Shown: piece after piece, positions 42,715-63,954 of the stretch | Numbering within the stretch: the first letter of the stretch is position 1 | How the letters are laid out: every line of letters begins with the position of its first letter | Source of the DNA: Escherichia coli | Lineage (GTDB): Bacteria; Pseudomonadota; Gammaproteobacteria; Enterobacterales; Enterobacteriaceae | DNA length: 64,000 nt | Assembly: GCF_030013595.1 (NCBI RefSeq) | Contig: NZ_CP122768.1 | Direction: 5' to 3' (one strand) | Notes under the pieces: model-generated | The model's input: only the letters and a program-made list of their open reading frames with translations | Database searches by the model: none | What the model was told of the DNA's origin: nothing | Made by a program: the position numbers and the translations under genes

Positions 42715-42717
42715 AGG

Positions 42718-43140
42718 GTGCTTAACGATCCCCGATTTACCGCTGAAGTCGAGCTGACCATTCCCTTTCACGACGTCGATATGATGGGCGTGGCCTGGCA
42801 CGGTAACTATTTTCGCTACTTTGAAGTGGCCCGCGAGGCGCTGCTCAACCAGTTCAATTACGGCTATCGGCAGATGAAAGAGTCCGGTTATTTGTGGCCA
42901 GTGGTCGATGCGCGGGTGAAATATCGCCACGCCCTCACCTTTGAGCAACGCATCCGCGTGCGTGCGCATATCGAAGAGTTCGAAAACCGTCTGCGGATTG
43001 GCTATCAGATTTTCGATGCCGAAACGGGCAAACGCGCCACCACCGGATACACCATTCAGGTCGCAGTCGACGAGCAAAGCCGCGAACTGTGCTTTGTCAG
43101 CCCCGATATTCTGTTTGAACGCATGGGAGTCAAACCATGA
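42718..43140 (+). CDS. apeK: 4HBT/YbgC-type hotdog thioesterase
   Basis: 140 aa, GTG start; conserved N-terminal HDVD...GVAWHGNYFRYFE region typical of 4-hydroxybenzoyl-CoA thioesterase family. Confidence 0.75.
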   Translation: MLNDPRFTAEVELTIPFHDVDMMGVAWHGNYFRYFEVAREALLNQFNYGYRQMKESGYLWPVVDARVKYRHALTFEQRIRVRAHIEEFENRLRIGYQIFDAETGKRATTGYTIQVAVDEQSRELCFVSPDILFERMGVKP

Positions 43141-46029: not shown

Positions 46030-46610
46030 TCAAATCCACATTCTGGCGAGCGTTCGCCCTGACCGCTACGCTTATCCTCACCGGCTGTAGCCACTCGCAA
46101 CCAGAACAGGAAGGCCGCCCGCAGGCGTGGCTGCAACCTGGCACGCGCATCACGCTGCCGGCACCAGGGATTTCACCCGCAGTCAATTCGCAGCAACTGT
46201 TGACCGGCAGCTTCAACGGCAAAACCCAGTCGCTGTTAGTGATGCTTAACGCCGACGATCAGAAAATCACCCTTGCCGGGCTGTCGTCGGTCGGCATTCG
46301 CCTGTTTCTGGTGACCTACGATGCGCAAGGGCTACGCGCCGAGCAATCCATCGTCGTCCCACAGTTACCGCCCGCAAGTCAGGTACTGGCTGACGTGATG
46401 CTCAGCCACTGGCCGATTAGCGCCTGGGAGGCGCAACTTCCCGCAGGATGGACACTTCGCGACAACGGTGACAAACGCGAGCTGCGTAACGCCAGCGGCA
46501 AACTGGTCACGGAAATCACCTATCTGAATCGCCAGGGAAAACGCGTGCCAATCAGAATTGAGCAGCATGTCTTTAAATACCACATCACCATTCAATACTT
46601 AGGTGAATGA
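46026..46610 (+). CDS. apeN: DUF3261-type lipoprotein
   Basis: 194 aa, lipobox LTGCSHS; ATGA overlap with apeM. Confidence 0.6.
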   Translation: MIKSTFWRAFALTATLILTGCSHSQPEQEGRPQAWLQPGTRITLPAPGISPAVNSQQLLTGSFNGKTQSLLVMLNADDQKITLAGLSSVGIRLFLVTYDAQGLRAEQSIVVPQLPPASQVLADVMLSHWPISAWEAQLPAGWTLRDNGDKRELRNASGKLVTEITYLNRQGKRVPIRIEQHVFKYHITIQYLGE

Positions 46611-46611
46611 T

Positions 46612-47781
46612 ATGATTTATATTTCCGCCGTCGGCATGATCAACGCCCTGGGAAATAACCTTGACGAAATCGCAGCCAACCTGGCTCGCGGTGTCGCCCC
46701 CGGCATGCGCCCACGCGCAGGCTGGTTGCAGGGGCATCCGCAGGCGGTCCTGGCTGGCGTGGATGGCGAGCTTCCGCTTATCCCGGAAAAATTCGCTGCG
46801 CATCGCTCGCGCAACAATCAGATCCTGCTGGCGGCGCTGGCGCAGCTCCAGCCGCAGGTTGATGACGCTATCGCGAAATATGGCTGCGAGCGCATCGCGA
46901 TTGTGCTTGGCACCAGCACCTCCGGCCTGCATGAAGGCGACACGCACGTTAACCTGCACACCCACGGGCAGCCGAGCACCACGTGGCACTATGCACAACA
47001 AGAACTCGGCGATCCGTCGCGTTTTCTCAGCCACTGGCTGGCGCTCGACGGCCCGGCTTATACCCTTTCAACCGCCTGCTCCTCCAGTGCCAGAGCAATG
47101 ATCAGCGGGCGCAGGCTTATCGAAGCGGGGCTGGTCGATGCCGCCATTGTGGGTGGCGCAGACACCCTGAGCCGAATGCCGATTAACGGTTTTCACAGCC
47201 TCGAATCGCTCTCGCCAACCTTATGTCAGCCGTTTAGTCGTGACCGCGCAGGTATCACCATTGGTGAAGGGGCGGGGCTAATGCTGCTGACCCGGGAACC
47301 GCAGCCCATCGCGTTGCTGGGCGTTGGTGAATCGAGCGACGCTTACCATATTTCAGCCCCGCATCCGCAGGGCGAAGGAGCGATCCGCGCTATTAATCAG
47401 GCGCTGACCGATGCGCAGCTTACGCCGGATGACGTCGGCTATATCAACCTGCACGGCACCGCCACACAGCTCAACGACCAGATTGAATCAATGGTGGTTA
47501 ACGCCCTGTTTGGCGAACGCGTACCGTGCAGCTCCACCAAACATTTGACCGGACACACGCTCGGCGCGGCTGGCATTACCGAGGCGGCAATTAGTATGTT
47601 GATTTTACAGCGTGATTTACCGCTGCCCGCTCAGGACTTCAGCCTGTCGCCGCGCGATCCCACGCTGCCACCGTGTGGCATTATCGAAAAACCGCAGCCG
47701 CTGGCACGTCCGGTGATCCTGTCCAATTCCTTCGCCTTTGGCGGCAATAACGCCAGCATTCTGCTCGGGAGGGTTTCGTGA
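46612..47781 (+). CDS. apeO: beta-ketoacyl-ACP synthase (KS)
   Basis: Active-site motif STACSSSARAM plus LHGTATQ and GHTLGAAG histidines; start set at MIYISAVG (ORF track starts at GTG 46603). Confidence 0.85.
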   Translation: MIYISAVGMINALGNNLDEIAANLARGVAPGMRPRAGWLQGHPQAVLAGVDGELPLIPEKFAAHRSRNNQILLAALAQLQPQVDDAIAKYGCERIAIVLGTSTSGLHEGDTHVNLHTHGQPSTTWHYAQQELGDPSRFLSHWLALDGPAYTLSTACSSSARAMISGRRLIEAGLVDAAIVGGADTLSRMPINGFHSLESLSPTLCQPFSRDRAGITIGEGAGLMLLTREPQPIALLGVGESSDAYHISAPHPQGEGAIRAINQALTDAQLTPDDVGYINLHGTATQLNDQIESMVVNALFGERVPCSSTKHLTGHTLGAAGITEAAISMLILQRDLPLPAQDFSLSPRDPTLPPCGIIEKPQPLARPVILSNSFAFGGNNASILLGRVS

Positions 47782-48242
47782 GCCACTATTTATCCCCCGG
47801 CGCTTATCTGCCCCACGACGCGCCCATGTTACTGCTGGAAGACGTGGTGAGCGTCAGCGATGACAGCGCGGTGTGCCGCGTGACGGTTTCGCCCAGTGGC
47901 GTACTGGCACCGTTTCTCGACCCGGACGGCAATCTCCCTGGCTGGTTTGCCCTTGAACTGATGGCGCAAACCGTCGGCGTCTGGTCTGGCTGGCATCGCC
48001 ACCAGCAGGGCAAAAACAGTATTGAGTTAGGGATGATACTGGGCGCGCGTGAATTGCTTTGCACCACTGGCATTCTGCCCGCAGGCCAGACGCTGACCAT
48101 TACCGTCAAACTGCTGATGCAGGACGATCGCTTCGGCAGCTTTGAGTGCAGCATCAACGACGGCGAGGCGACGGGCCGCATTAACACCTTCCAGCCGACC
48201 GCGGAAGAACTTACCACCCTGTTTCAACAAGGAGCGTCCTGA
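47778..48242 (+). CDS. apeP: hotdog-fold 3-hydroxyacyl-ACP dehydratase
   Basis: 154 aa FabA-like; GTGA overlap with apeO stop. Confidence 0.65.
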   Translation: MSHYLSPGAYLPHDAPMLLLEDVVSVSDDSAVCRVTVSPSGVLAPFLDPDGNLPGWFALELMAQTVGVWSGWHRHQQGKNSIELGMILGARELLCTTGILPAGQTLTITVKLLMQDDRFGSFECSINDGEATGRINTFQPTAEELTTLFQQGAS

Positions 48243-48973
48243 TGAGTCGTTCAGTTCTGGTTACTGGTGCCAGCAAAGGCATTGGTCGCGCCATCGCCTG
48301 CAAGCTTGCGGCAGACGGCTTTAACATTGGCGTTCACTATCACCGTGACGCCACAGGCGCTCAGGAAACGCTGAATGCCATTGTCGCCAACGGGGGTAAC
48401 GGGCGTTTGCTCAGTTTCGACGTCGCAAACCGCGAACAGTGTCGGGAAGTGCTGGAGCATGAGATCGCGCAACACGGTGCCTGGTACGGCGTGGTCAGTA
48501 ACGCCGGGATCGCCCGCGATGCCGCTTTTCCGGCTTTAAGCGATGACGACTGGGATGCGGTGATCCACACCAACCTCGACAGTTTCTACAACGTCATTCA
48601 GCCGTGCATTATGCCAATGATCGGCGCGCGCCAGGGTGGGCGCATCATCACGCTGTCCTCGGTTTCCGGCGTAATGGGCAATCGCGGCCAGGTGAATTAC
48701 AGCGCAGCCAAAGCCGGAATTATCGGCGCAACAAAAGCACTGGCTATCGAACTCGCAAAGCGCAAAATCACCGTCAATTGCATCGCGCCAGGGCTTATTG
48801 ATACCGGGATGATCGAAATGGAAGAAAGCGCTCTGAAAGAGGCAATGTCGATGATCCCCATGAAACGTATGGGCCAGGCGGAAGAAGTTGCCGGGCTTGC
48901 CAGTTATTTAATGTCTGATATTGCGGGTTACGTCACCCGCCAGGTTATTTCCATCAACGGAGGGATGTTATGA
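48242..48973 (+). CDS. apeQ: SDR-family 3-oxoacyl-ACP reductase (FabG-like)
   Basis: Rossmann motif VTGASKGIGRAIA and catalytic YSAAK. Confidence 0.85.
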   Translation: MSRSVLVTGASKGIGRAIACKLAADGFNIGVHYHRDATGAQETLNAIVANGGNGRLLSFDVANREQCREVLEHEIAQHGAWYGVVSNAGIARDAAFPALSDDDWDAVIHTNLDSFYNVIQPCIMPMIGARQGGRIITLSSVSGVMGNRGQVNYSAAKAGIIGATKALAIELAKRKITVNCIAPGLIDTGMIEMEESALKEAMSMIPMKRMGQAEEVAGLASYLMSDIAGYVTRQVISINGGML

Positions 48974-50199
48974 CACGTCGCGTAGTGATTACAGGAATGG
49001 GCGGCGTGACTGCCTTTGGTGAAAACTGGCAGGACGTTTCTGCACGCTTACTGGCGTATGAAAATGCGGTGCGCAAAATGCCGGAGTGGCAGGTCTACGA
49101 TGGGCTGCACACCCTGCTTGGCGCGCCTGTTGATGATTTCACGCTACCGGAGCACTACACCCGCAAGCGTATCCGTGCGATGGGCCGCGTGTCGCAAATG
49201 TCGACCCGTGCCAGCGAGCTGGCGTTAGAGCAGGCAGGGTTGATTGGCGATCCGATATTAACCAGCGGCGAAACGGGCATTGCGTACGGTTCATCGACCG
49301 GCAGTACCGGTCCGGTGAGCGAATTTGCCACCATGCTGACTGAAAAGCACACGAACAACATCACTGGCACCACCTATGTGCAGATGATGCCGCACACCAC
49401 CGCTGTTAATACTGGCCTCTTTTTCGGCCTGCGCGGGCGGGTGATCCCAACCTCCAGCGCCTGTACCTCCGGCAGCCAGGCGATCGGTTATGCGTGGGAA
49501 GCCATTCGCCACGGTTATCAAACGGTGATGGTTGCCGGTGGTGCCGAAGAGTTATGCCCTTCAGAAGCAGCAGTGTTTGATACCCTTTTTGCCACCAGCC
49601 AGCACAATGATGCGCCGAAAACCACACCTTCACCGTTCGATGAAAACCGCGACGGACTGGTGATTGGTGAAGGCGCAGGTACGCTCATTCTCGAAGAACT
49701 GGAGCATGCCAAAGCGCGCGGCGCGACCATTTACGGTGAAATCGTCGGCTTTGCGACGAACTGCGACGCGGCACATATTACCCAGCCGCAGCGCGAAACC
49801 ATGCAGTATTGTATGGAGCAATCGCTGAAAATCGCAGGGTTAAGCGCACAAGATATCGGCTATATTTCAGCGCATGGTACGGCGACCGATCGCGGTGATA
49901 TGGCAGAAAGTCTGGCGACAGCAACCATTTACGGTGATAATGTGCCGCTCTCCTCGCTGAAAAGTTATTTTGGTCATACGCTTGGTGCCTGTGGCGCGCT
50001 CGAAGCCTGGATGAGTCTGCAAATGATGCGCGAAGGTTGGTTTGCGCCTACGCTAAACCTGAATAAACCAGACCCGAATTGTGGCGCGCTGGATTACATC
50101 ATGCATGAAGCCCGCAGGGTTGATTGTGAGTTTTTGCAGAGTAACAACTTTGCCTTTGGCGGCATTAATACATCCATCATTATTAAGCGCTGGCCCTGA
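48970..50199 (+). CDS. apeR: beta-ketoacyl-ACP synthase (FabB/FabF-like)
   Basis: 409 aa with TSSACTSGSQAIG active-site Cys, AHGTATD and GHTLGACG histidines; ATGA overlap with apeQ. Confidence 0.85.
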   Translation: MTRRVVITGMGGVTAFGENWQDVSARLLAYENAVRKMPEWQVYDGLHTLLGAPVDDFTLPEHYTRKRIRAMGRVSQMSTRASELALEQAGLIGDPILTSGETGIAYGSSTGSTGPVSEFATMLTEKHTNNITGTTYVQMMPHTTAVNTGLFFGLRGRVIPTSSACTSGSQAIGYAWEAIRHGYQTVMVAGGAEELCPSEAAVFDTLFATSQHNDAPKTTPSPFDENRDGLVIGEGAGTLILEELEHAKARGATIYGEIVGFATNCDAAHITQPQRETMQYCMEQSLKIAGLSAQDIGYISAHGTATDRGDMAESLATATIYGDNVPLSSLKSYFGHTLGACGALEAWMSLQMMREGWFAPTLNLNKPDPNCGALDYIMHEARRVDCEFLQSNNFAFGGINTSIIIKRWP

Positions 50200-51038
50200 G
50201 TTATACAACCACATGGACATCCCATGTGGTGATTCTTCAAAAAATCTGAATCAATGAATATGAACCTCAAATTCTCTTACGCATACTGAAGAGCATTCCG
50301 TATAACGATTCAGCAGACAAAACTTTATCAGTCCACACGAATCAACGGATGCACAGATGACACGCCCGGTTATCACCGGGCAATGGTTGCCATAACGGGT
50401 AACATAAGGGACTGAACAGTTGTCTTTAGCGCAACGAACTGATCTAACGTACCTGAACGGACAACCTGAAAACAGTCTTTCACCCTGCATTGTCCGCCAG
50501 TGCTTATTACCAACCACGTCTGTTGCAGTAAAGTAATCAGTTGCGAACATTATTTATCAATCGTGACGCTGGCTCGCGCATGGCAGAAAAGGTCCTGACT
50601 GAGCAACAACAGGCATCGTACTGTTGCTGCTCCATGTTGTTTATATGAACGCATCCCGTTTGCAAGGCTTCCGTGTTTTTGACGTTGACGGTAGATTGCT
50701 GCTCTATATCCTTATTGCAGCCGGTGCTGCGGGCCTCAATGAGATTCGCTGACTCTCGCCTTATTCACGCAACGAGCTTTAAGCTCAGAAAAACATCCAA
50801 GTTTGGTGAGTCACAGTCTTACCTGTCGTTGTCATCAATATAGGAATGGATAATCTGGAGAGCGATACTGCAGGCTGATATTGCGGTTTTGCGACAAGTT
50901 TTTAGCATCCGCTTCTACGCCAAATACCTGAAGTAGGAATGGATGCGTTAGCAGCATACATCCGGAACTGCGCGGGGAATAGCCGGAAACGGCTATCCCT
51001 ACCACAATAGCTAACTTTGTAATAGCGCTCTTTTAGGC

Positions 51039-52070
51039 TCATGTACTCTGACGTAATTCTATCTGGTAGTTGAATTGCACGATACGCGACTCTTCTGATT
51101 CATCATGATTATTATTCAATAGTCCAATCAGTAACTTACCTGTCTCTATCCCCATTTTTTTGTAGTCAATACGGATGGATGTCAAAGTTGGGTGTGTTTG
51201 ATCGCAATTGTCTGAACCGTCAAGACAAGCTACAGCGATATTTCCAGGGATTTTTAACAAACGCCGCTGGCACTCAAACATTATACCCAGCGCAATCTCT
51301 TCGTGGCTGCAAATCACAGCATCCAGCTCTGGTTGTCGCAGTAATATCTCGTTTAATGCGTAACGCCCCAATTGCAGACTTGCGGCATCCGGCATGGTGA
51401 TAACAAGATCAGTGTTCTGGTAATGGCTCAGCATTGCTTTATGCCAGCCGTTCAGTTGCTGACGTTGCAGGCGGTTGTCCATATGCGCACCGATAAATCC
51501 GATATTCTTATAACCCTGCTCCAGCAGATGTTCGGTCAGTTTATGTGATGCTTCAAAAAATGCTGTTTCGATGGTAATTTGAGCCGGACTGAAAGGGGAA
51601 CCGATAACGTTAATGGTAGGTATATTTGTTTTCTCGAGTATCTGGTGAGTTTTATCAGCCAACTGAGAACCAAAAATAACTAACGCCGCCGGGTTGCCTT
51701 GAAGAAGCGTCATCAGAATTTCAGCTTCTTTGAGCTGATTATACTCATGACACCCAAGCAGTAGCTGGAATTCATTTTTATTAAGCACCTGCTGTAATGA
51801 CTGCATAAAGCGGGAGCTGGCTTTATCTGTCAGGGAAGGAACCAGTACGGCGACTGTATGACTGTGACCAGATGCAAGGGCGCCAGCAGTTCTGTTGGGA
51901 ATATAACCCAACTCTTCTACGGCCTGTTCTATCTTTTCCCTCAGCTTGTCAGAAACCTGTTCCGGTGTTCTCAGCGCGCGGGAAACGGTCATAGTTCCGA
52001 CACCTGCAAAGTTAGCGACCTCCTGCAGCGTCACCCGTCCGGTACCACGGCGCTTACGTGTTTTTTCCAT
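51039..52070 (-). CDS. LacI-family transcriptional regulator
   Basis: N-terminal HTH VTLQEVANFAGVGTMTVSRAL and periplasmic-binding-protein-like effector domain; divergent from the PTS genes. Confidence 0.85.
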   Translation of the reverse strand: MEKTRKRRGTGRVTLQEVANFAGVGTMTVSRALRTPEQVSDKLREKIEQAVEELGYIPNRTAGALASGHSHTVAVLVPSLTDKASSRFMQSLQQVLNKNEFQLLLGCHEYNQLKEAEILMTLLQGNPAALVIFGSQLADKTHQILEKTNIPTINVIGSPFSPAQITIETAFFEASHKLTEHLLEQGYKNIGFIGAHMDNRLQRQQLNGWHKAMLSHYQNTDLVITMPDAASLQLGRYALNEILLRQPELDAVICSHEEIALGIMFECQRRLLKIPGNIAVACLDGSDNCDQTHPTLTSIRIDYKKMGIETGKLLIGLLNNNHDESEESRIVQFNYQIELRQST

Positions 52071-52340
52071 TTCGACTCCATGGATAATTACAACCAGCTG
52101 TTTTCATTACTTTTATTTCACCATTACTCTTTCCAGTTTTTGCCCACGGTAGCAAATATCCTGTTGCATTGTATATGCAGGAACCGAATATAGCCAAAGC
52201 ATGGCGGCAGAGAAATGATAGCGCTATCACAAAGATTGGTAGCGTTATCAGATAGCGCTATCAAATGCGACAATCATCACATTAATTAATGCGTAAAATA
52301 TCTACTCTCCTGTTAATTATCATCGGGAGTTATCAGTAGC

Positions 52341-52784
52341 ATGTTAAAAAATCTATTAAATACAGAGGTCGTTCAGGTCGTGGAACAGGTCAAAGACTGG
52401 CGGGAAGCCGTGGCGATTTCATGCCGACCGTTGATTGAAAACGGCTCTATCGAACCGCGTTATGTTGATGCGATCTATCACTCGCACGACACTATCGGTC
52501 CGTACTATGTGGTTGGCCCTGGTATTGCGATGCCTCATGCGCGCCCGGAAGAGGGGGCTAACAAGCTGTCATTAGCACTGACCCTGATCCCTTCAGGTGT
52601 GAATTTTGATGCCGATGAAAACGATCCAGTGAAATTACTGATTGTGCTGGCTGCAACCGACAGTACCAGCCACATTGAAGCGATTTCTCAACTCGCCAAG
52701 TTATTCGATAACGAAAAAGACATACAGGCCATTTTGACGGCCAAAACGACGCAGGACATTTTGTCTGTTATTGCGCGCTATTAA
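52341..52784 (+). CDS. PTS EIIA component (PTS_EIIA_2 type)
   Basis: 147 aa, phosphorylatable His in GIAMPHARP. Confidence 0.8.
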   Translation: MLKNLLNTEVVQVVEQVKDWREAVAISCRPLIENGSIEPRYVDAIYHSHDTIGPYYVVGPGIAMPHARPEEGANKLSLALTLIPSGVNFDADENDPVKLLIVLAATDSTSHIEAISQLAKLFDNEKDIQAILTAKTTQDILSVIARY

Positions 52785-52799
52785 TCCAGAGGAACATTT

Positions 52800-53087
52800 A
52801 TGAAAATTACAGTGGTTTGCGGTAACGGCTTAGGCACCAGCCTGATGATGGAAATGAGCATTAAAAGCATTTTGAAGGATTTGTCCGTCAGCGCTGATGT
52901 TGATCACGTCGACCTGGGCTCCGCGAAAGGGACGCCGAGTGATATCTATGTCGGCACCAAAGACATTGCCGAGCAGTTAGCCGCGCAGTCTGTCGCAGGC
53001 AAAATCGTCGCACTGGAAAATATGATTGATAAGAAAGCCATGAGAGAACGTTTGTCCGTGGTATTAACCGAATTAGGCGCACTGTAA
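52800..53087 (+). CDS. PTS EIIB component (ascorbate/SgaB-like)
   Basis: 95 aa, active-site Cys in VVCGNGLGTS. Confidence 0.8.
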   Translation: MKITVVCGNGLGTSLMMEMSIKSILKDLSVSADVDHVDLGSAKGTPSDIYVGTKDIAEQLAAQSVAGKIVALENMIDKKAMRERLSVVLTELGAL

Positions 53088-53099
53088 GCTGGGGGCGAT

Positions 53100-54356
53100 A
53101 TGGATTTCTTTCGTTTTTTGATGAGCGATGTACTTTCCGAACCCGCAGTGCTGGTCGGTTTAATCGCCCTGATTGGCCTGATTGCACAGAAAAAACCGGT
53201 AACCGAATGCATTAAAGGTACCGTCAAGACCATTATGGGGTTTGTGATTTTAGGCGCAGGGGCGGGTTTAGTTGTGTCGTCACTGGGTGACTTCGCAAAC
53301 ATTTTCCAGCATGCCTTTGGTATTCAGGGTGTAGTGCCGAACAATGAAGCCATTGTTTCCGTAGCGCAGAAAAGCTTCGGGAAAGAAATGGCGATGATTA
53401 TGTTCTTTGCGATGGTTATCAACATTATGATTGCCCGTTTCACACCGTGGAAATTTATCTTCCTGACCGGTCATCACACGTTGTTTATGTCGATGATGGT
53501 AGCGGTAATTCTGGCAACAGCAGGCATGACCGGCATTACGCTTATAGCCGTTGGCTCTTTGGTTGTTGGCGTGGCAATGGTCTTTTTCCCGGCTATTGCG
53601 CATCCGTACATGAAGAAAGTGACCGGTTCTGATGACGTTGCCATCGGCCACTTCTCAACATTATCTTATGTATTGGCCGGTTTCATCGGCAGCAAGTTTG
53701 GTAATAAAGAGCACTCGACTGAAGACATGAATGTGCCGAAAAGTCTGCTGTTCTTGCGCGACACGCCGGTTGCTATCTCTTTTACCATGAGCATAATTTT
53801 CCTGGTGACGTGCCTGTTTGCGGGTGCAGATGCGGTGAAAGAGCTTAGCGGTGGTAAAAACTGGTTCATGTTCTCTATCATGCAATCCATTACCTTCGCA
53901 GCTGGCGTGTACATCATTCTGCAGGGTGTGCGCATGGTGATTGCGGAGATTGTCCCGGCATTCAAAGGTATTTCAGACAAGCTGGTTCCGAATGCCAGAC
54001 CTGCTCTCGATTGCCCGGTCGTCTTCCCTTACGCACCTAACGCTGTACTGGTTGGTTTCCTGAGTAGCTTTGCTGCAGGTTTAATCGGTATGTTCACGTT
54101 GTATCTGCTGAACATGATCGTGATTATTCCTGGTGTGGTGCCGCACTTCTTCGTAGGTGCAGCTGCAGGGGTATTCGGTAATGCAACGGGTGGACGTCGT
54201 GGTGCGATTTTGGGTGCCTTCGCTCAGGGCTTGCTTATTACCTTCCTGCCAGTATTCTTATTGCCGGTGCTGGGTGATATTGGTTTTGCTAACACCACCT
54301 TCAGTGATGCTGACTTTGGCGCACTGGGTATTTTGTTAGGGATTATCGTTCGCTAA
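53100..54356 (+). CDS. PTS EIIC permease (ascorbate/UlaA-SgaT family)
   Basis: 418 aa polytopic membrane protein directly after EIIB. Confidence 0.8.
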   Translation: MDFFRFLMSDVLSEPAVLVGLIALIGLIAQKKPVTECIKGTVKTIMGFVILGAGAGLVVSSLGDFANIFQHAFGIQGVVPNNEAIVSVAQKSFGKEMAMIMFFAMVINIMIARFTPWKFIFLTGHHTLFMSMMVAVILATAGMTGITLIAVGSLVVGVAMVFFPAIAHPYMKKVTGSDDVAIGHFSTLSYVLAGFIGSKFGNKEHSTEDMNVPKSLLFLRDTPVAISFTMSIIFLVTCLFAGADAVKELSGGKNWFMFSIMQSITFAAGVYIILQGVRMVIAEIVPAFKGISDKLVPNARPALDCPVVFPYAPNAVLVGFLSSFAAGLIGMFTLYLLNMIVIIPGVVPHFFVGAAAGVFGNATGGRRGAILGAFAQGLLITFLPVFLLPVLGDIGFANTTFSDADFGALGILLGIIVR

Positions 54357-54571
54357 TATTTTGATGACATTAATATCCTCCAGGATTTCAGGAACGTGGA
54401 GGATATTAATTCCTCTTATTTTCTCCATTTTTCTTTCTTCCAGTCAGGACTGCATCCGATTAATCGTAAGCGCTCCGAGAAGTACGTAGCGTAAGGATTA
54501 TTTTACAGCTGAGAAGTTTCAGTGCAGCAGTTCATGCACACGGTTCGACGGCTAGTCATTGATCTTCATAA

Positions 54572-54856
54572 TTACCTCGCGTAAAAAACGGGGTAAGGCC
54601 GCTCATCCAGCGTCATCTCCACAGGTAATAATTCAACGCCAATGCCAGAAGAGTTCGTTACCGGAAGACGCCGTGATATACGCCCTTTGATCAGCGAGAG
54701 CCTGAGCCATTTGAACAGAAGATTATCATTGATATCATGCTCCCGGGCAATACGGGCAACAGAACCCCTTGGTTGTAAAGCCAGTTTAACCATTTGAAGT
54801 TTAAACTCATTTGAAAATGACCTGCGGGGTTCAACTGATAATGTTTTTTGTTCCAT
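54572..54856 (-). mobile_element. IS3-family transposase OrfA-like fragment
   Basis: 94-aa ORF with HTH transposase-8 pattern (FSNEFKLQMVKLALQPRGSVARIAREHDINDNLLFKWLR) but no adjacent OrfB or inverted repeats identified. Confidence 0.5.
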
Positions 54857-55277
54857 AACAGGTGTCCACTAGTTGAAAAGGTGGGTACCTATGTTACCAA
54901 TACTGGCTTAATGGCTACATACAGCAGTCGGTTTACGCATACACTTTTATAGTGCACTCCGGCCTCATGAATATAACGGTGGATTACCGCCGAACGAATC
55001 GGAAAATAGATACTGGAAAAAAACTGAAATTGTGACCAGTTTTTGTTGACCACTACAAATAAATAAAAGAGTTGCAGTGCTTGCTCGGTAAGAAAACAAT
55101 GGAGGTTAAGCTCCTCAAAGAAGCTGTGGAGTACACCACTCTACAGTAGTTGCGCAAATTTGGAGTGGACGATAATGTGATCGTCTATAAGGGCAACGCT
55201 ATCATAGTCTTGTCCTGGCGGGTAAAAAAACGCGCTTACCTTAACGATAAGCGCGCCGCTGTTCAGGCCTTGAGTGG

Positions 55278-56291
55278 TTATTCAATTCCTGTGGTGACTG
55301 TAAAAGTGCGCGTTTGCTGCGGTGCAACCTGAATCAGCGTGCCATTACGTTGCGCGGCAAGATACCCCTCAGGCCGACAGGTTGCAGGTAATGCAAAGGC
55401 GGCTACCTGTTGCTCTCCGTTATAAAGGATCCAGCGTGTCACATAATTTAGTTCAGCACTGTAGAAACGAGTAACAAACGTAGTGCCATCGGGAGAGATC
55501 ATGCGAAACTCTGGCTGATCTGTATAAGCGTCCAGTTTGTCTGCAAAGAAGACAATTTCTGGATCATAAAATTCCGGTTGACTCAGCGTCGACAGAGAGG
55601 CTTCTCCCTGCATAATCCGTTGATTAAACGCCAGCCACTGAGCGGTGGGATTAACATGCGAAGGCACTGATTCACGCAATCTTAATATTTCGTCCGGGAT
55701 ATTCTGGCTGAATGTAGCATTTGGTATATATGCATAATTCATGTGGCACATATATTGTAGTGGCATATCTACAGAAGCCAGATTGGTTACGGCCATCTTA
55801 ATATCGAACAGTGTAGAGGATTTGTGAAGGACCACTGTTGGCTGAGCCAGATAATGATGACCGAAACCCATTACATACTCGTAACGCCCGTTAAGGCGTA
55901 ACATATCTCCGTCTAATTCCAGCCATGCTTCATCCATCGCGGCACAGGCCATTTCACCGTGTAGCAGATGAGTATCTTCCACAGATGGGCAGCCATTAGC
56001 CAGCAAACCTGAATGAAAAGCAAAACAGCCATAGGTCTCTATCACCTCTGTCGCCGGTTTAGGCTGGCGAAACATATTGCACATGGTGAGGCCGTGTCCA
56101 TCAAATTGCGCATCCCAAATCATCTGCCCCATCCAGGGAAGAATAATCAAATGTCCACGACTGTTTGCAATTTTAAGCCCCTCGACACCGCTGTCATATC
56201 GAAAAGACGTGACAGTAAAATCACTATTTTCCAGCAAGATACGAGGTTTCTCGCCAAAAAGCGCCCGCCACAAATTAATACGCGTACTCAT
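55278..56291 (-). CDS. deoX: DeoX-like protein of unknown function (third gene of deoKPX-type module)
   Basis: 337-aa ORF downstream of the permease gene; assignment by operon context and recollection of the deoQKPX organisation; fold not verified. Confidence 0.45.
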   Translation of the reverse strand: MSTRINLWRALFGEKPRILLENSDFTVTSFRYDSGVEGLKIANSRGHLIILPWMGQMIWDAQFDGHGLTMCNMFRQPKPATEVIETYGCFAFHSGLLANGCPSVEDTHLLHGEMACAAMDEAWLELDGDMLRLNGRYEYVMGFGHHYLAQPTVVLHKSSTLFDIKMAVTNLASVDMPLQYMCHMNYAYIPNATFSQNIPDEILRLRESVPSHVNPTAQWLAFNQRIMQGEASLSTLSQPEFYDPEIVFFADKLDAYTDQPEFRMISPDGTTFVTRFYSAELNYVTRWILYNGEQQVAAFALPATCRPEGYLAAQRNGTLIQVAPQQTRTFTVTTGIE

Positions 56292-56302
56292 AACGATTCT
56301 CC

Positions 56303-57619
56303 TCAGGACGCTGTGACTTCAGCCAGTGCGGTACGTACTTTGCTTTCACGCCAGAAGTAGACTCCGACATAGACAAAGCAGAGCATAGAAACCAGGAATG
56401 AAAGCTGTAGTGAGTGGAACATATCTGCAATATATCCCTGAATTGCCGGAACCACCGCGGCACCGACAATAGCCATAACAATGACTGCTCCTGCCATTTC
56501 TGTATGTTCGTTATCAACTGTATCCAGTGTTCCTGCATAGATCGTCGCCCAGCAAGGGCCAAACAAAACACTTACCAGGACGGCGACATAGACCGCGCTG
56601 AAACTTGGAGCCAGTGCAACATATGCCAGGAACAGCGCCCCTATAACGGAATAGAGAATCAATACTTTTTCCGGATTAAAACGCGTCATAAGGATATTGG
56701 CTATAAACTTGCCAATAAAGAAGCAGGCAAAGCTATAGACCATGAAGTTTGAAGCATCACGTTCGTTGATATCGCCCAACTCCAGCGCCAGACGGATGGT
56801 AAATGACCATACTGCGACCTGCATACCCACATAAAGGAACTGCGCCACAATACCGCGACGAAAGCGCGGATTTCTAGCCAGATAGCGCAGCGTATCCATT
56901 GCTGACGGGCGTTTATGGTGACTTGTCTGTGCCACTTTACAGGTTGGGAAGCGGGTTAAAAGGAACAACACCATGACCACAACCAGAATCATAATCATAT
57001 ACTTATACGGTTCAAGGGTGTTCTCTAACATCAGCACCTTAAAGTTGTGAATTTGCTCGGCGTTCATTCCTGACATCTGCTTTTCAAGGCTTTCCCCCTC
57101 GGAGAAAACCAGATATTTGCCCAATAAAATACCAGACGCAGCACCAATCGGATAAAAGGTCTGGCTGATATTGAGCCGCAATGTGGCATAGGCTTTTGGA
57201 CCGATCATTGAACTGTATGTGTTCGCTGCAGTTTCAAGGAAACTCAGGCCAATCGCAATCGCAAAAATAGCTGCAAGGAACATAGTGTAGGTTGCCATAT
57301 GCGAGGCAGGGAAAAAAAGTGTACAACCACCAATATACAGCGTCAGGCCAATTAAAATTGCCACCTTATAACTGGTCTTTTTAATCACAAGGGATGCTGG
57401 TATTGCAATTAAAAAATAACCTCCATAAAATGCGCTCTGCACCAATGCTGAAGCAAAGTTACTTAGCGAAAATACACTTTTGAATTGAGTGATTAATATG
57501 TCATTTAATGCAGCTGCGCATCCCCATAGCGGGAATAAACACGATAACAAAATAAACTGGAACAAGGGAGTCTTATTCAGATACCCATCAGGCATCTGAA
57601 TGATGTTTTTATCGTTCAT
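56303..57619 (-). CDS. deoP: MFS sugar permease (FucP-like), putative deoxyribose permease
   Basis: 438 aa, 12-TM MFS profile; between kinase and deoX-like genes. Confidence 0.6.
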   Translation of the reverse strand: MNDKNIIQMPDGYLNKTPLFQFILLSCLFPLWGCAAALNDILITQFKSVFSLSNFASALVQSAFYGGYFLIAIPASLVIKKTSYKVAILIGLTLYIGGCTLFFPASHMATYTMFLAAIFAIAIGLSFLETAANTYSSMIGPKAYATLRLNISQTFYPIGAASGILLGKYLVFSEGESLEKQMSGMNAEQIHNFKVLMLENTLEPYKYMIMILVVVMVLFLLTRFPTCKVAQTSHHKRPSAMDTLRYLARNPRFRRGIVAQFLYVGMQVAVWSFTIRLALELGDINERDASNFMVYSFACFFIGKFIANILMTRFNPEKVLILYSVIGALFLAYVALAPSFSAVYVAVLVSVLFGPCWATIYAGTLDTVDNEHTEMAGAVIVMAIVGAAVVPAIQGYIADMFHSLQLSFLVSMLCFVYVGVYFWRESKVRTALAEVTAS

Positions 57620-57646
57620 AGTGCTACCTTTAACTGTGCAGGATGA

Positions 57647-58540
57647 TTATTCGTTTAAGGTTAAAAATTCATTAAATTGTTCAATACTCGGATAAGATGA
57701 TTGCGTACCTTTCCCTGTGACGCTGAAAGCGGCAAAGAGAGCGGCTTTTTTCAAAGCGGCTTCAACATCACCGCTTTGAACATAATAATGGGAAAAGCAA
57801 CCAATAAATGCGTCACCAGCGCCACTAGTATCAACAGCATTTACTTTGAATGCAGGAACATGGACTTCCTGATCGCGGGTCATCCATAATGCGCCTTTTT
57901 CGCTCATGGTAACAATAATATTGTTCAGCCCTTTATCAACTAACGAACGTGCGGCCAAACGAATATGATCATAAGTATCAACCGACATACCGGTTAATAT
58001 TTCCAGTTCTGTTTCATTCGGGATAAAGAAATCACATTTGCAGGCATAAGACATATCTAACTCACGCAATGCCGGAGCCGGATTTAATAACACTTCAATA
58101 CCATTTTTCTTACCAAACTCAATCGCGTGGTAAACTGTTTCCAGTTGAACTTCCAGTTGTAAAACGATCAATTTGCATTTTTTCAGATCTTCTGCAGCTC
58201 GATCGATATCTTCCGGGGAAAGAAATTTATTCGCTCCCTTAATTATTAATATACTATTGCTCGAGTTGGCATTAACAAAGATCGGTGCAACACCACTGCT
58301 GGTACAGGGGACTTTCTCAACATAAGTGGTATTAATTCCCCATGATTCGAGATTACGAATAGTATTATCCGCAAAAATATCATCACCTACTTTAGTCAGC
58401 ATCAGGACTTTTGAATTCAATTTAGCCGCCGCCACCGCTTGATTAGCACCTTTCCCACCACATCCGATTTTGAAGGCAGGTGCTTCCAGAGTTTCTCCTT
58501 CTTTAGGCATCTGATTAGTGTAAGTAATGAGATCCACCAT
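57647..58540 (-). CDS. deoK: ribokinase-family sugar kinase, putative deoxyribokinase; 5' end cut by IS1
   Basis: Ribokinase motifs GGKGANQAVAAA and DTSGAGDAF; upstream in-frame codons ...VIGSN run straight into the IS1 terminal repeat, so the native start codon and promoter are missing. Confidence 0.65.
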   Translation of the reverse strand: MVDLITYTNQMPKEGETLEAPAFKIGCGGKGANQAVAAAKLNSKVLMLTKVGDDIFADNTIRNLESWGINTTYVEKVPCTSSGVAPIFVNANSSNSILIIKGANKFLSPEDIDRAAEDLKKCKLIVLQLEVQLETVYHAIEFGKKNGIEVLLNPAPALRELDMSYACKCDFFIPNETELEILTGMSVDTYDHIRLAARSLVDKGLNNIIVTMSEKGALWMTRDQEVHVPAFKVNAVDTSGAGDAFIGCFSHYYVQSGDVEAALKKAALFAAFSVTGKGTQSSYPSIEQFNEFLTLNE

Positions 58541-58572
58541 ATTGGAACCAATAACTGGGTAATGACTCCAAC

Positions 58573-59076
58573 TTACTGATAGTGTTTTATGTTCAGATAA
58601 TGCCCGATGACCTTGTCATGCAGCTCCACCGATTTTGAGAACGACAGTGACTTCCGTCCCAGCCTTGCCAGATGTTGTCTCAGATTCAGGTTATGCCGCT
58701 CAATGCGCTGAGTATAACGCTTGCTGATAACGTGCAGCTTTCCCTTCAGGCGTGATTCATACAGCGGCCAGCCATCCGTCATCCATACCACGACCTCAAA
58801 GGCCGACAGCAGGCTCAGAAGACGCTCCAGTGTGGCCAGAGTGCGTTCACCGAAGACGTGCGCCACAACCGTCCTCCGCATCCTGTCATACGCGTAAAAC
58901 AGCCAGCGCTGACGTGATTTAGCACCGACGTAGCCCCACTGTTCGTCCATTTCAGCGCAGACAATCACATCACTGCCCGGTTGTATGCGCGAGGTTACCG
59001 ACTGCGGCCTGAGTTTTTTAAGTGGCGGAAAATCGTGTTGAGGCCAACGCCAATAATGCGTGCACTGGCGCGACAT
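58573..59076 (-). CDS. insB: IS1 InsB (expressed as InsAB' by frameshifting)
   Basis: 167-aa ORF overlapping insA in the -1 frame. Confidence 0.85.
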
Positions 59077-59270
59077 CCGACGCCATTCATGGCCATATCA
59101 ATGATTTTCTGGTGCGTACCGGGCTGAGAGGCGGCGTAAGTGAACTGTAGTTGCCATGTTTTACGGCAGTGAGAGCAGAGATAGCGCTGATGTCCGGCGG
59201 TGCTTTTGCCGTTACGCACCACCCCGTCAGTAGCTGAACAGGAGGGACAGCTGATAGAAACAGAAGCCAC
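58995..59270 (-). CDS. insA: IS1 InsA
   Basis: 91-aa [23 protein letters not shown]... Confidence 0.9.
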
Positions 59271-59325
59271 TGGAGCACCTCAAAAACACCATCATACACT
59301 AAATCAGTAAGTTGGCAGCATCACC

Positions 59326-60027
59326 GACAATGCAGATGGTTCAACCATGCTGGATAAACGTTATGTCATCACTAACGGTAATCAGCTGGCGATTCAAAAT
59401 GATTTACTGGAGAGTTTATCAAAAGCGTTAAACCAACCGTGGCCACAACGAATGCAGGAGATGCTCCAGCAAATTTTGCCTCATCGTGGTGCGTTATTAA
59501 CTAATTTTTATCAGGCACATGATTATTTACTGCATGGCGATGATAAATCATTGAACCGTGCCAGTGAATTATTAGGTGAGATTGTTCAATCATCCCCAGA
59601 ATTTACCTACGCGAGAGCAGAAAAAGCATTAGTTGATATCGTGCGCCATTCTCAACATCCTTTAGATGAAAAACAATTAGCAGCACTGAACACAGACATA
59701 GATAACATTGTTACACTACCGGAATTGAATAACCTGTCCATTATATATCAAATAAAAGCGGTCAGTGCTCTGGTAAAAGGTAAAACAGATGAGTCTTACC
59801 AGGCGATAAATACTGGCATTGATCTTGAAATGTCCTGGCTAAATTATGTGTTGCTTGGCAAGGTTTATGAAATGAAGGGGATGAACCGGGAAGCAGCTGA
59901 TGCATATCTCACCGCCTTTAATTTACGCCCAGGGGCAAACACCCTTTACTGGATTGAAAATGGTATATTCCAGACTTCTGTTCCTTATGTTGTACCTTAT
60001 CTCGACAAATTTCTCGCTTCAGAATAA
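59326..60027 (+). pseudogene. cadC: cadC 3' fragment (C-terminal periplasmic sensor domain only), truncated by IS1
   Basis: Reading frame continues from the IS1 boundary and ends ...NTLYWIENGIFQTSVPYVVPYLDKFLASE, the CadC C-terminus; the N-terminal DNA-binding and TM regions are absent. Confidence 0.85.
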
Positions 60028-60392
60028 GTAACTCCCGGGTTGATTTATGCTCGGCAAGATTTGTTGTTGAGTTTTTGTATGTTTCTGTTGGTATAATATG
60101 TTGCGGCAATTTATTTGCCGCATAATTTTTATTACATAAATTTAACCAGAAAATGTCCCACAATCCATTGTAAATATTGAATGTTTATCTTTTCATGATA
60201 TCAACTTGCGATCCTGATGTGTTAATAAAAAACCTCAAGTTCTCACTTACAGAAACTTTTGTGTTATTTCACCTAATCTTTAGGATTAATCCTTTTTTCG
60301 TGAGTATTCTTAGCGCCAGTTTGGTCTGGTCAGGAAATAGTTATACATCATGACCCGGACTCCAAATTCAAAAATGAAATTAGGAGAAGAGC
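60028..60392 (+). promoter_or_regulatory. cadBA promoter region (Pcad, CadC-dependent)
   Basis: AT-rich 365-bp intergenic region between cadC remnant and cadB; individual binding sites not mapped. Confidence 0.5.
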
Positions 60393-61727
60393 ATGAGTTC
60401 TGCCAAGAAGATCGGGCTATTTGCCTGTACCGGTGTTGTTGCCGGTAATATGATGGGGAGCGGTATTGCATTATTACCTGCGAACCTAGCAAGTATCGGT
60501 GGTATTGCTATCTGGGGTTGGATTATCTCTATTATTGGTGCAATGTCGCTGGCGTATGTATATGCCCGACTGGCAACAAAAAACCCGCAACAAGGTGGCC
60601 CAATTGCTTATGCCGGAGAAATTTCCCCTGCATTTGGTTTTCAGACAGGTGTTCTTTATTACCATGCTAACTGGATTGGTAACCTGGCGATTGGTATTAC
60701 CGCTGTATCTTATCTTTCCACCTTCTTCCCAGTATTAAATGATCCTGTTCCGGCGGGTATCGCCTGTATTGCTATCGTCTGGGTATTTACCTTTGTAAAT
60801 ATGCTCGGCGGTACCTGGGTAAGCCGTTTAACCACTATTGGTCTGGTGCTGGTTCTTATTCCTGTGGTAATGACAGCTATTGTTGGCTGGCATTGGTTTG
60901 ATGCTGCGACTTATGCTGCTAACTGGAATACTGCGGATACCACCGATGGTCATGCGATCATTAAAAGTATTCTGCTCTGCCTGTGGGCCTTCGTGGGTGT
61001 TGAATCCGCAGCTGTAAGTACTGGTATGGTTAAAAACCCGAAACGTACCGTTCCGCTGGCAACCATGCTGGGTACTGGTTTAGCAGGTATTGTTTATATC
61101 GCTGCGACTCAGGTGCTTTCCGGTATGTATCCGTCTTCTGTAATGGCAGCTTCCGGTGCTCCGTTTGCAATCAGTGCTTCAACTATCCTCGGTAACTGGG
61201 CTGCGCCGCTGGTTTCTGCATTCACCGCCTTTGCGTGCCTGACCTCTCTGGGCTCCTGGATGATGTTGGTAGGCCAGGCAGGTGTACGTGCCGCTAACGA
61301 CGGTAACTTCCCGAAAGTTTATGGTGAAGTCGACAGCAACGGTATTCCGAAAAAAGGTCTGCTGCTGGCTGCAGTGAAAATGACTGCCCTGATGATCCTC
61401 ATCACTCTGATGAACTCTGCCGGTGGTAAAGCATCTGACCTGTTCGGTGAACTGACCGGTATCGCAGTACTGCTGACTATGCTGCCGTACTTCTACTCTT
61501 GCGTTGACCTGATTCGTTTTGAAGGCGTTAACATCCGCAACTTTGTCAGCCTGATCTGCTCTGTACTGGGTTGCGTGTTCTGCTTCATCGCGCTGATGGG
61601 CGCAAGCTCCTTCGAGCTGGCAGGTACCTTCATCGTCAGCCTGATTATCCTGATGTTCTACGCTCGCAAAATGCACGAGCGCCAGAGCCACTCAATGGAT
61701 AACCACACAGCGTCTAACGCACATTAA
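60393..61727 (+). CDS. cadB: lysine/cadaverine antiporter CadB
   Basis: 444 aa APC-family transporter upstream of cadA. Confidence 0.95.
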   Translation: MSSAKKIGLFACTGVVAGNMMGSGIALLPANLASIGGIAIWGWIISIIGAMSLAYVYARLATKNPQQGGPIAYAGEISPAFGFQTGVLYYHANWIGNLAIGITAVSYLSTFFPVLNDPVPAGIACIAIVWVFTFVNMLGGTWVSRLTTIGLVLVLIPVVMTAIVGWHWFDAATYAANWNTADTTDGHAIIKSILLCLWAFVGVESAAVSTGMVKNPKRTVPLATMLGTGLAGIVYIAATQVLSGMYPSSVMAASGAPFAISASTILGNWAAPLVSAFTAFACLTSLGSWMMLVGQAGVRAANDGNFPKVYGEVDSNGIPKKGLLLAAVKMTALMILITLMNSAGGKASDLFGELTGIAVLLTMLPYFYSCVDLIRFEGVNIRNFVSLICSVLGCVFCFIALMGASSFELAGTFIVSLIILMFYARKMHERQSHSMDNHTASNAH

Positions 61728-61806: not shown

Positions 61807-63954
61807 ATGAACGTTATTGCAATATTGAATCACATGGGGGTTTATTTTAAAGAAGAACCCATCCGTGAACTTCATCGCGCGCTTGAACGTCTGAACTTCC
61901 AGATTGTTTACCCGAACGACCGTGACGACTTATTAAAACTGATCGAAAACAATGCGCGTCTGTGCGGCGTTATTTTTGACTGGGATAAATATAATCTCGA
62001 GCTGTGCGAAGAAATTAGCAAAATGAACGAGAACCTGCCGTTGTACGCGTTCGCTAATACGTATTCCACTCTCGATGTAAGCCTGAATGACCTGCGTTTA
62101 CAGATTAGCTTCTTTGAATATGCGCTGGGTGCTGCTGAAGATATTGCTAACAAGATCAAGCAGACCACTGACGAATATATCAACACTATTCTGCCTCCGC
62201 TGACCAAAGCACTGTTTAAATATGTTCGTGAAGGTAAATATACTTTCTGTACTCCTGGTCACATGGGCGGTACTGCATTCCAGAAAAGCCCGGTAGGTAG
62301 CCTGTTCTATGATTTCTTTGGTCCGAACACCATGAAATCTGATATTTCCATTTCAGTATCTGAACTGGGTTCTCTGCTGGATCACAGTGGTCCACACAAA
62401 GAAGCAGAACAGTATATCGCTCGCGTCTTTAACGCAGACCGCAGCTACATGGTGACCAACGGTACTTCCACTGCGAACAAAATTGTTGGTATGTACTCTG
62501 CTCCAGCAGGCAGCACCATTCTGATTGACCGTAACTGCCACAAATCGCTGACCCACCTGATGATGATGAGCGATGTTACGCCAATCTATTTCCGCCCGAC
62601 CCGTAACGCTTACGGTATTCTTGGTGGTATCCCACAGAGTGAATTCCAGCACGCTACCATTGCTAAGCGCGTGAAAGAAACACCAAACGCAACCTGGCCG
62701 GTACATGCTGTAATTACTAACTCTACCTATGATGGTCTGCTGTACAACACCGACTTCATCAAGAAAACACTGGATGTGAAATCCATCCACTTTGACTCCG
62801 CGTGGGTGCCTTACACCAACTTCTCACCGATTTACGAAGGTAAATGCGGTATGAGCGGTGGCCGTGTAGAAGGGAAAGTGATTTACGAAACCCAGTCTAC
62901 TCACAAACTGCTGGCGGCGTTCTCTCAGGCTTCCATGATCCACGTTAAAGGTGACGTAAACGAAGAAACCTTTAACGAAGCCTACATGATGCACACCACC
63001 ACTTCTCCGCACTACGGTATCGTGGCGTCCACTGAAACCGCTGCGGCGATGATGAAAGGCAATGCAGGTAAGCGTCTGATCAACGGTTCCATTGAACGTG
63101 CGATCAAATTCCGTAAAGAGATCAAACGTCTGAGAACGGAATCTGATGGCTGGTTCTTTGATGTATGGCAGCCGGATCATATCGATACGACTGAATGCTG
63201 GCCGCTGCGTTCTGACAGCACCTGGCACGGCTTCAAAAACATCGATAACGAGCACATGTATCTTGACCCGATCAAAGTCACCCTGCTGACTCCGGGGATG
63301 GAAAAAGACGGCACCATGAGCGACTTTGGTATTCCGGCCAGCATCGTGGCGAAATACCTCGACGAACATGGCATCGTTGTTGAGAAAACCGGTCCGTATA
63401 ACCTGCTGTTCCTGTTCAGCATCGGTATCGATAAGACCAAAGCACTGAGCCTGCTGCGTGCTCTGACAGACTTCAAACGTGCGTTCGATCTGAACCTGCG
63501 TGTGAAAAACATGCTGCCGTCTCTGTATCGTGAAGATCCTGAATTCTATGAAAACATGCGTATTCAGGAACTGGCTCAGAATATCCACAAACTGATTGTT
63601 CACCACAATCTGCCGGATCTGATGTATCGCGCATTTGAAGTTCTGCCGACCATGGTAATGACTCCGTATGCTGCGTTCCAGAAAGAGCTGCACGGTATGA
63701 CCGAAGAAGTTTACCTCGACGAAATGGTAGGTCGTATTAACGCCAATATGATCCTTCCGTATCCGCCGGGAGTTCCTCTGGTAATGCCGGGTGAAATGAT
63801 CACCGAAGAAAGCCGTCCGGTTCTGGAGTTCCTGCAGATGCTGTGTGAAATCGGCGCTCACTATCCGGGCTTTGAAACCGATATTCACGGTGCATACCGT
63901 CAGGCTGATGGCCGCTATACCGTTAAGGTATTGAAAGAAGAAAGCAAAAAATAA
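61807..63954 (+). CDS. cadA: inducible lysine decarboxylase CadA
   Basis: Start at MNVIAILNHMGVYFKEEP (715 aa); PLP-binding region with STHKLL present. Confidence 0.97.
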   Translation: MNVIAILNHMGVYFKEEPIRELHRALERLNFQIVYPNDRDDLLKLIENNARLCGVIFDWDKYNLELCEEISKMNENLPLYAFANTYSTLDVSLNDLRLQISFFEYALGAAEDIANKIKQTTDEYINTILPPLTKALFKYVREGKYTFCTPGHMGGTAFQKSPVGSLFYDFFGPNTMKSDISISVSELGSLLDHSGPHKEAEQYIARVFNADRSYMVTNGTSTANKIVGMYSAPAGSTILIDRNCHKSLTHLMMMSDVTPIYFRPTRNAYGILGGIPQSEFQHATIAKRVKETPNATWPVHAVITNSTYDGLLYNTDFIKKTLDVKSIHFDSAWVPYTNFSPIYEGKCGMSGGRVEGKVIYETQSTHKLLAAFSQASMIHVKGDVNEETFNEAYMMHTTTSPHYGIVASTETAAAMMKGNAGKRLINGSIERAIKFRKEIKRLRTESDGWFFDVWQPDHIDTTECWPLRSDSTWHGFKNIDNEHMYLDPIKVTLLTPGMEKDGTMSDFGIPASIVAKYLDEHGIVVEKTGPYNLLFLFSIGIDKTKALSLLRALTDFKRAFDLNLRVKNMLPSLYREDPEFYENMRIQELAQNIHKLIVHHNLPDLMYRAFEVLPTMVMTPYAAFQKELHGMTEEVYLDEMVGRINANMILPYPPGVPLVMPGEMITEESRPVLEFLQMLCEIGAHYPGFETDIHGAYRQADGRYTVKVLKEESKK

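Follow-up and report, generated by a model that had tools for sequence, protein, structure and literature searches.

Deletion of about 23 kb at an IS1 copy links a ribokinase gene of the pheU island to codon 280 of cadC in Escherichia coli, with a predicted loss of lysine decarboxylase activity

Organization of the island, IS1 and cad genes

The window, by which we mean the whole 64-kb stretch of E. coli DNA that was analyzed, contains a genomic island attached at the tRNA-Phe gene pheU, followed by a ribokinase gene shortened at its 5' end, an intact IS1, the 3' part of the activator gene cadC, and the cadB and cadA genes. The coordinates of these features are collected in Table 1; those of the island genes were transferred from the annotation of a matching locus.

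Table 1. Features of the pheU-cad region, in window coordinates.
Feature	Position	Strand	Evidence or remark
tRNA-Phe (pheU), island attachment site	22562..22637	+	ARAGORN
Remaining proximal pheU island	22638..58557		now reaches up to IS1
Island integrase	22835-24097
Degenerate IS1 in the island	24268-25029
Ribokinase gene (rbsK-like), left breakpoint	57647..58557	-	NCBIfam TIGR02152, 366 bits
Intact IS1	58558..59325	-	768 bp; lies where ~23 kb was deleted
insB ORF	58573-59076	-	167 aa
insA ORF	58995-59270	-	91 aa
cadC 3' remnant, codons 280-512 and stop	59326..60027	+	nt 838-1539 of full-length cadC
cadC-cadB intergenic region with the CadC-dependent promoter Pcad	60028..60392	+	365 nt, complete
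Two terminator-like hairpins	60049-60072, 60102-60122	+	consensus scan only; just 3' of the cadC stop
Cad1, upstream CadC-binding site of the cadBA promoter	60168..60208	+	match to the 41-mer printed in PMC5430869
cadB, lysine/cadaverine antiporter, intact	60393..61727	+	444 aa, 100% identical to WP_000092909.1
cadA, inducible lysine decarboxylase, intact	61807..63954	+	715 aa, 100% identical to WP_001295383.1

In island-free relatives the same tRNA-Phe gene lies immediately upstream of cadC. In the window it is followed by the island, which carries, besides its integrase and a degenerate IS1, the fecIRABCDE genes, the remnant of a two-partner-secretion system, an aryl-polyene-type (ape) cluster, a LacI regulator with PTS IIA/IIB/IIC genes, and an operon of aldose epimerase, fucP and ribokinase. 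The island is matched in one piece at 99.9% identity by E. coli O141:H4 P13-6 and at 99.93% by E. coli 2015C-3163 (NZ_CP027219.1), and it is common to porcine and bovine isolates, O103:H2 and other human stool isolates. The nearest relative of the backbone is the pig faecal commensal E. coli HCP5S3_I2 (NZ_CM149870.1), which is 99.9-100% identical on both sides and lacks the island, its pheU being directly followed by an intact cadC. At the end facing IS1, the first 10 nt of the ribokinase gene (ATGGACATTG) are missing from the window, and so are its promoter and the divergently oriented DeoR regulator. The alignment to an island-bearing reference locus ends correspondingly at base 19158 of that locus, where the annotated ribokinase gene extends to 19168.

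The element next to the ribokinase gene is bounded by imperfect terminal inverted repeats of 23 nt (58558-58580 and 59303-59325; 83% complementary) and in matching genomes its annotation is IS1 family transposase. Its two open reading frames jointly span the NCBIfam IS1 transposase profile NF033558 (transpos_IS1), covering positions 1-81 and 76-199 of 199, and the A6C frameshift motif, TTAAAAAAC, can be read on the minus strand near 59010-59020. The transposase genes point toward the shortened ribokinase gene and away from cadC. In size, inverted repeats and the insA and insB frames, the element is thus a regular IS1. The 9-bp target duplication of a simple insertion is absent from its flanks, which read AATAACTGG on the left and GACAATGCA on the right. 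A deletion mediated by the element would be expected to leave no duplication. The absence speaks against a simple insertion but not against the identity of the element as IS1.

On the other side of IS1, alignment placed base 59326, the first after the element, at nt 838 of the 1539-nt cadC gene, that is, at the first base of codon 280. An earlier reading of the window, made from the sequence only, had put the surviving part of cadC at roughly 230 codons that begin exactly at the IS1 boundary and had stated that the DNA-binding and transmembrane parts were gone. Both points were borne out: 233 codons are kept, up to a stop codon at 60025-60027, and codons 1-279 (837 nt) are missing. The remnant encodes the same amino acids as residues 280-512 of the nearest relative's CadC protein, WP_064225826.1. 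In full-length CadC, Pfam places the winged-helix DNA-binding domain (Trans_reg_C) at residues 24-100 and CadC_C1 at residues 191-324; the transmembrane helix occupies roughly residues 160-180 and the periplasmic sensor residues 188-512. The same reading had equated the remnant with the periplasmic sensor domain. This holds as far as the origin of the sequence is concerned, but the sensor is incomplete, because codon 280 sits within CadC_C1 and the breakpoint therefore falls inside it. Altogether the gene has lost its promoter, start codon, DNA-binding domain, linker, membrane helix and about the first third of the periplasmic sensor. Residues C208 and C272, which we take to be the periplasmic disulfide pair of CadC, are both absent as well.

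Against the NCBIfam CadC equivalog NF007540, whose cutoff is 400 bits, the remnant scored 325 bits over profile positions 285-515 only. It therefore falls short of a functional CadC in every respect considered, having no winged-helix domain, no membrane helix with a complete sensor, and a score below the equivalog cutoff. The 5' part of cadC was not found elsewhere in the 64-kb window. Since the remnant is without promoter, start codon, winged-helix domain and membrane anchor, it is a null allele.

Downstream of the remnant, the cad genes proved to be full length with their promoter region, as the sequence-only reading had also claimed. Both open reading frames are whole, Cad1 is present, and the cadC-cadB intergenic region equals the references in length, the differences from them being 1 to 8 substitutions, without indels. 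A longer frame that opens at 61768 is merely an in-frame upstream extension of cadA. Across the 4,675 bp that comprise the cadC remnant, cadB and cadA, the sole difference from HCP5S3_I2 is a C-to-T change at 60175, which falls in the quasi-palindromic 17-mer of Cad1. We considered this change as a sign of promoter decay or as a compensating mutation and rejected both: a 50-mer with the T allele is present in 9 complete genomes, and cadC is intact in both of the 2 that were inspected. Because it is found in genomes with intact cadC, we regard the T allele as a rare natural polymorphism with no function attached to it.

Origin and distribution of the ribokinase-IS1-cadC joint

In 2015C-3163 (NZ_CP027219.1) the two breakpoints lie 23,315 bp apart. 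The order past the ribokinase gene in that genome is the DeoR regulator, a CP4-like module that includes YfjI, a GTPase, Ag43 and YeeU/CbtA, a repeat of the pheU 3' region, and an intact cadC. A single IS1 in the window thus links sequences that are not adjacent in close relatives, and the genes on both of its sides are shortened, as in an adjacent deletion. A lone IS1 at a novel joint without a target duplication is the classic outcome of intramolecular transposition or of recombination between IS1 copies. As judged from these junctions, about 23 kb was deleted in association with IS1, and the deletion joined the ribokinase gene of the pheU island to codon 280 of cadC.

Two routes could have produced it. 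By one, a single IS1 would have made an adjacent deletion through intramolecular transposition; by the other, recombination would have taken place between two IS1 copies in direct orientation, one in cadC and one at the ribokinase 5' end. By either route the ribokinase gene would have lost its first 10 nt and its promoter, and cadC its promoter and codons 1-279. The DeoR regulator would have gone with them, as would the CP4-like distal module and the right-hand attachment repeat of the island, and the result would be one IS1 between two shortened genes that were about 23 kb apart in the ancestor. Neither possible intermediate, one with IS1 at the ribokinase site and the distal island intact or one with IS1 at cadC nt 837 and the 5' half intact, was seen among the matches listed from 5,426 complete E. 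coli genomes. Loss of the right attachment repeat has probably fixed the island in the chromosome. An inversion or translocation of the missing DNA was also considered and set aside, as the only hits in a search of the 64-kb window came from the pheU attachment repeat and from homology to the integrase.

The sequence-only reading had implied that the truncation came from insertion of an IS element into cadC, and this part of it did not survive. Simple IS1 insertions in cadC do exist. In EH2252 (NZ_AP027176.1) an IS1 of the same orientation lies 13 bp downstream of the window breakpoint, with a duplication of GGTTCAACC and both halves of cadC present, and in EC556, EC571 and EC581 (NZ_AP027440.1 and relatives) an IS1 sits at cadC nt 1233; several further cases of IS1 in cadC were found among the matches listed from the 5,426 complete E. 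coli genomes. A simple transposition, however, would place the 5' half of cadC beyond the element, where the window has the ribokinase gene, and no 5' cadC occurs anywhere in the 64 kb. With the 9-bp duplication also absent, the sequence at the IS1 flanks already refutes a simple insertion, and its probability is practically nil. A second alternative is that the joint is an artefact of assembly, in which separate IS1 copies beside the ribokinase gene and beside the cadC remnant were collapsed into one while the intervening DNA was kept or moved. IS1 is a multi-copy element (a median of 11 places per E. coli genome match a query that contains IS1), and the independent draft contigs described below all break inside it, so that none spans the element. 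Against an artefact, the sequence of the window runs without a break across the element, which is a clean IS1 of 768 bp. We judge this alternative improbable, and even if it held, cadC would be split at codon 280 and non-functional.

The exact ribokinase-IS1-cadC junction is absent from the 5,426 complete E. coli genomes, and the left junction alone did not appear among the matches listed from that set. Public draft assemblies do contain the junctions. The right one, in which the IS1 end is followed by GACAATGCAGATGG, is identical in 5 public contigs that represent about 29 samples, including GCA_008326365.1, and the left one is identical in GCA_036246605.1 and GCA_049544575.1, with zero mismatches over 3.9 kb; these draft contigs end inside IS1, so that they confirm the two junctions separately and not their sharing of one IS1 copy. 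An exact look-up of the 297-aa ribokinase ORF is to be read with the reservation that this ORF is also called in intact genes, the IS1 junction being present in two assemblies only. Sequencing runs SRR30668404, SRR30668523, ERR14362488 and SRR19716120 are also among the public data that share junctions with the window. The shortened CadC product is recorded on just a handful of distinct contigs. Since each junction is reproduced exactly in independent draft assemblies, the two mark a real but rare clone, every contig of which also carries the 60175 T allele.

A more ambitious description would make this a distinct, previously undescribed E. coli clone of about 30 public samples, in which one IS1 event had three effects: cadaverine would be silenced, the fec/aryl-polyene island locked in place, and a fucose-type sugar operon left without its DeoR regulator and promoter. 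We regard this description as unlikely. Should the clone prove to be an emerging pathogen or a host-adapted lineage, its lysine decarboxylase (LDC)-negative trait would be a diagnostic marker, and the loss of LDC a candidate adaptive step outside EIEC and Shigella.

Predicted phenotype and possible reasons for the loss of cadC

Transcription from Pcad needs CadC bound at both Cad1 and Cad2 (PMC5430869). An MG1655 delta-cadC strain is LDC-negative, and EIEC strains in which cadC is defective but cadBA intact produce cadaverine only once they are given a plasmid-borne cadC (PMC4156367). Because Pcad transcription depends strictly on CadC, the intact cadBA genes of the window are expected to be silent. 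The sequence-only reading had likewise predicted an LDC-negative strain despite an intact cadA, and this part of it is supported. Without CadC at Cad1 and Cad2, cadB and cadA would stay unexpressed, the cells would be LDC-negative and free of cadaverine, and a plasmid-borne cadC should reverse this state. By analogy with the published strains, we hold it very probable that cadBA is silent and that the LDC-negative phenotype can be rescued by cadC, and we place equally high confidence in the explanation as a whole, which runs from the IS1 deletion through the cadC null allele and silent cadBA to an LDC-negative, cadC-reversible phenotype. LdcC, a second and weakly expressed lysine decarboxylase encoded outside the window, could produce a weak or delayed reaction in certain assays.

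A second copy of the cad locus is very rare in E. coli. The segment from the cadC 3' end to cadB occurs in at most 2 copies per genome, and only 3 plasmid-borne copies were found in 5,237 genomes.

The strain could nonetheless be LDC-positive if cadBA were expressed without CadC, be it through read-through from IS1, an outward promoter of the element or the change at 60175. IS elements can activate neighbouring genes, and the sole SNP that separates the 4.7 kb from the nearest relative does sit in the Cad1 palindrome. The transposase genes of this IS1 are directed away from cad, however, and a consensus scan of the plus strand between IS1 and cadB found no outward sigma-70-like promoter match. 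Moreover, the two terminator-like hairpins after the cadC stop should, if they function as their sequence suggests, halt read-through from IS1 and the cadC remnant before it reaches Pcad. The distribution of the T allele, with cadC intact in both genomes inspected, argues against a role for the SNP, and published cadC-null strains with intact cadBA produce no cadaverine. CadC-independent expression is accordingly assigned a very small probability, and the silent state of cadBA remains the predicted one.

As to why cadC was lost, the sequence-only reading had invoked the pathoadaptive route of EIEC and Shigella. Silencing of cadC is indeed the typical EIEC route (PMC5723341). We nevertheless lean towards the view that the loss was a by-product of IS1-driven island remodelling, or served general fitness at acidic or fluctuating pH, rather than being an anti-virulence step. 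The deletion takes 22 kb of island DNA along with cadC, the backbone equals that of a pig commensal, and IS1 hits in cadC occur in pig, gull and human isolates. No EIEC- or Shigella-specific sequence was seen in the 64-kb window. Low-pH laboratory evolution of K-12 also selects loss of cadC, IS-mediated loss included, according to the summary of Harden 2015 and He 2017 given in PMC12956098. Since cadC loss is selected in plain low-pH evolution too, pathoadaptation is only one possible reason for it. The label "pathoadaptive" is thus not justified by the evidence, and it is no less likely that the loss was neutral or served general fitness.

Significance and comparison with known cad lesions

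The allele is a fresh instance of the well-known loss of cadC through IS1, and its only particular feature is the 23-kb deletion that caused it. It opens no new biological question, and its practical value is modest. It predicts an atypical profile, LDC-negative despite an intact cadA, which can confuse the phenotypic distinction of E. coli from Shigella and which gene-presence screens that score cadA alone would miss. It is also a further independent case in which cadC and not cadA is the recurrent target in the loss of cadaverine synthesis, with IS1 as a frequent agent, and it indicates that the remodelling of an island can entail this loss as a side effect.

Among known lesions, one close parallel is with EIEC, which typically becomes LDC-negative by inactivation of cadC with cadBA intact (PMC5723341). 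In strains HN280, 4608 and 53638 cadC is defective and cadBA intact, according to the accounts of Casalino et al. 2003 given in PMC4156367 and PMC5723341, and in strain 6.81 an IS1 lies in cadC (PMC4156367, PMC5723341). The window resembles these strains in that the activator is lost while cadB, cadA and their promoter are intact, and the LDC-negative state of EIEC is reversed by cadC. It differs from them in the nature of the lesion, which is an IS1-flanked deletion of about 23 kb that took part of the pheU island, whereas EIEC has insertions or point mutations in a locus colinear with that of K-12. Unlike EIEC, moreover, the nearest relatives of the window are animal-associated E. coli, and nothing within the 64 kb points to an invasive background.

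With EH2252 and with EC556, EC571 and EC581, the window shares an IS1 in cadC and intact cadBA downstream. Both halves of the gene survive in those genomes; in the window there is only the 3' half, and no duplication accompanies it. When set beside the classical adjacent deletions of IS1, the window shares the lone element, the lack of a duplication and flanks that were not adjacent in the ancestor, and has nothing distinctive.

In Shigella it is cadA itself that is missing or inactivated, and in STEC O117:K1:H7 cadC is split by a large inserted fragment with aerobactin genes (PMC3739510). We considered whether the window is identical with the O117:K1:H7 rearrangement and set this aside, since the published version has the aerobactin genes inside the split cadC. 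The common ground with the cad "black holes" of Shigella and with O117:K1:H7 is the loss of LDC, here predicted, through rearrangement of the cad locus, and in the laboratory such lineages can be confused with Shigella. Unlike in either of them, cadBA is untouched in the window, and the adjoining island carries fec and aryl-polyene genes.

The pheU island and its truncated right end

The genomic island integrated at tRNA-Phe (pheU) carries an integrase, fecIRABCDE, a ShlB/FhaC-type two-partner-secretion remnant, an aryl-polyene-type (ape) biosynthetic cluster, and a LacI regulator with ascorbate-type PTS genes. Its right-hand pheU 3' repeat, of which a reference copy lies at L016 8860-8995 (a reference stretch containing the island's right end), was lost through the IS1 deletion; the island is therefore probably unable to excise. 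A short transposase fragment separates the epimerase gene from the PTS genes and was retained in all island-bearing relatives that we examined.

The same deletion left the epimerase-fucP-ribokinase operon without its promoter and its DeoR-type regulator, and cut 10 nt from the 5' end of the ribokinase gene. Since the transposase genes of the intact IS1 (58558-59325) are oriented into the operon, read-through from this element may now be its sole source of transcription. Within the ribokinase gene, the next ATG in frame is at 58540; no ribosome-binding site is obvious ahead of it, and initiation there would cost the protein its conserved N-terminal G-S-N residues.

A second, degenerate IS1 copy, 95.4% identical to the intact element, is placed between the island integrase and fecI. 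Its counterpart in P13-6, an E. coli O141:H4 strain bearing the same island, is annotated with an internal stop. This copy is an ancestral component of the island, found in P13-6 within a single 99.9% match. Together the two IS1 copies, in direct orientation, enclose 33.5 kb.

Features of the island and its right-hand operon
Feature	Position	Strand or orientation	Remarks
Genomic island	22562-58557		~36 kb; integration site tRNA-Phe (pheU)
Second IS1, degenerate	24268-25029	same as IS1 at 58558	762 bp
Transposase fragment	54572-54856	minus	94 aa; IS3-family orfA-like; 'transposase' in reference genome annotation
Epimerase-fucP-ribokinase operon	55278-58557	minus	

A substitution in the Cad1 site

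Across the 4,675 bp compared in the cad region, the sole difference from the nearest relative is a C-to-T change at position 60175, which falls within the quasi-palindrome of Cad1, the upstream CadC-binding site of the cadBA promoter (TAAACATT to TAAATATT). The T allele is present in all contigs of the clone bearing this deletion. Because it also occurs in nine complete genomes, with cadC intact in both of the two that were inspected, its distribution identifies it as a rare natural polymorphism.

Comparison with other E. coli

Several independent IS1 insertions were found in cadC of unrelated E. coli isolated from pigs, gulls and humans, among them E. coli EH2252 (NZ_AP027176.1, L017 4143-6458). 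One such insertion lies 13 bp from the breakpoint in the window, in the same orientation. This recurrence suggests that IS1 inserts preferentially into this stretch of cadC, or that selection tolerates or favours alleles of this kind. Elsewhere in the backbone, the nearest relative, HCP5S3_I2, has an IS4-like ISVsa5 between epmB and yjeJ (L018 20172-21499) that is absent from the window; the two alignment blocks flanking the element overlap by 10 bp (window 11036-11045), which looks like the ISVsa5 target duplication.
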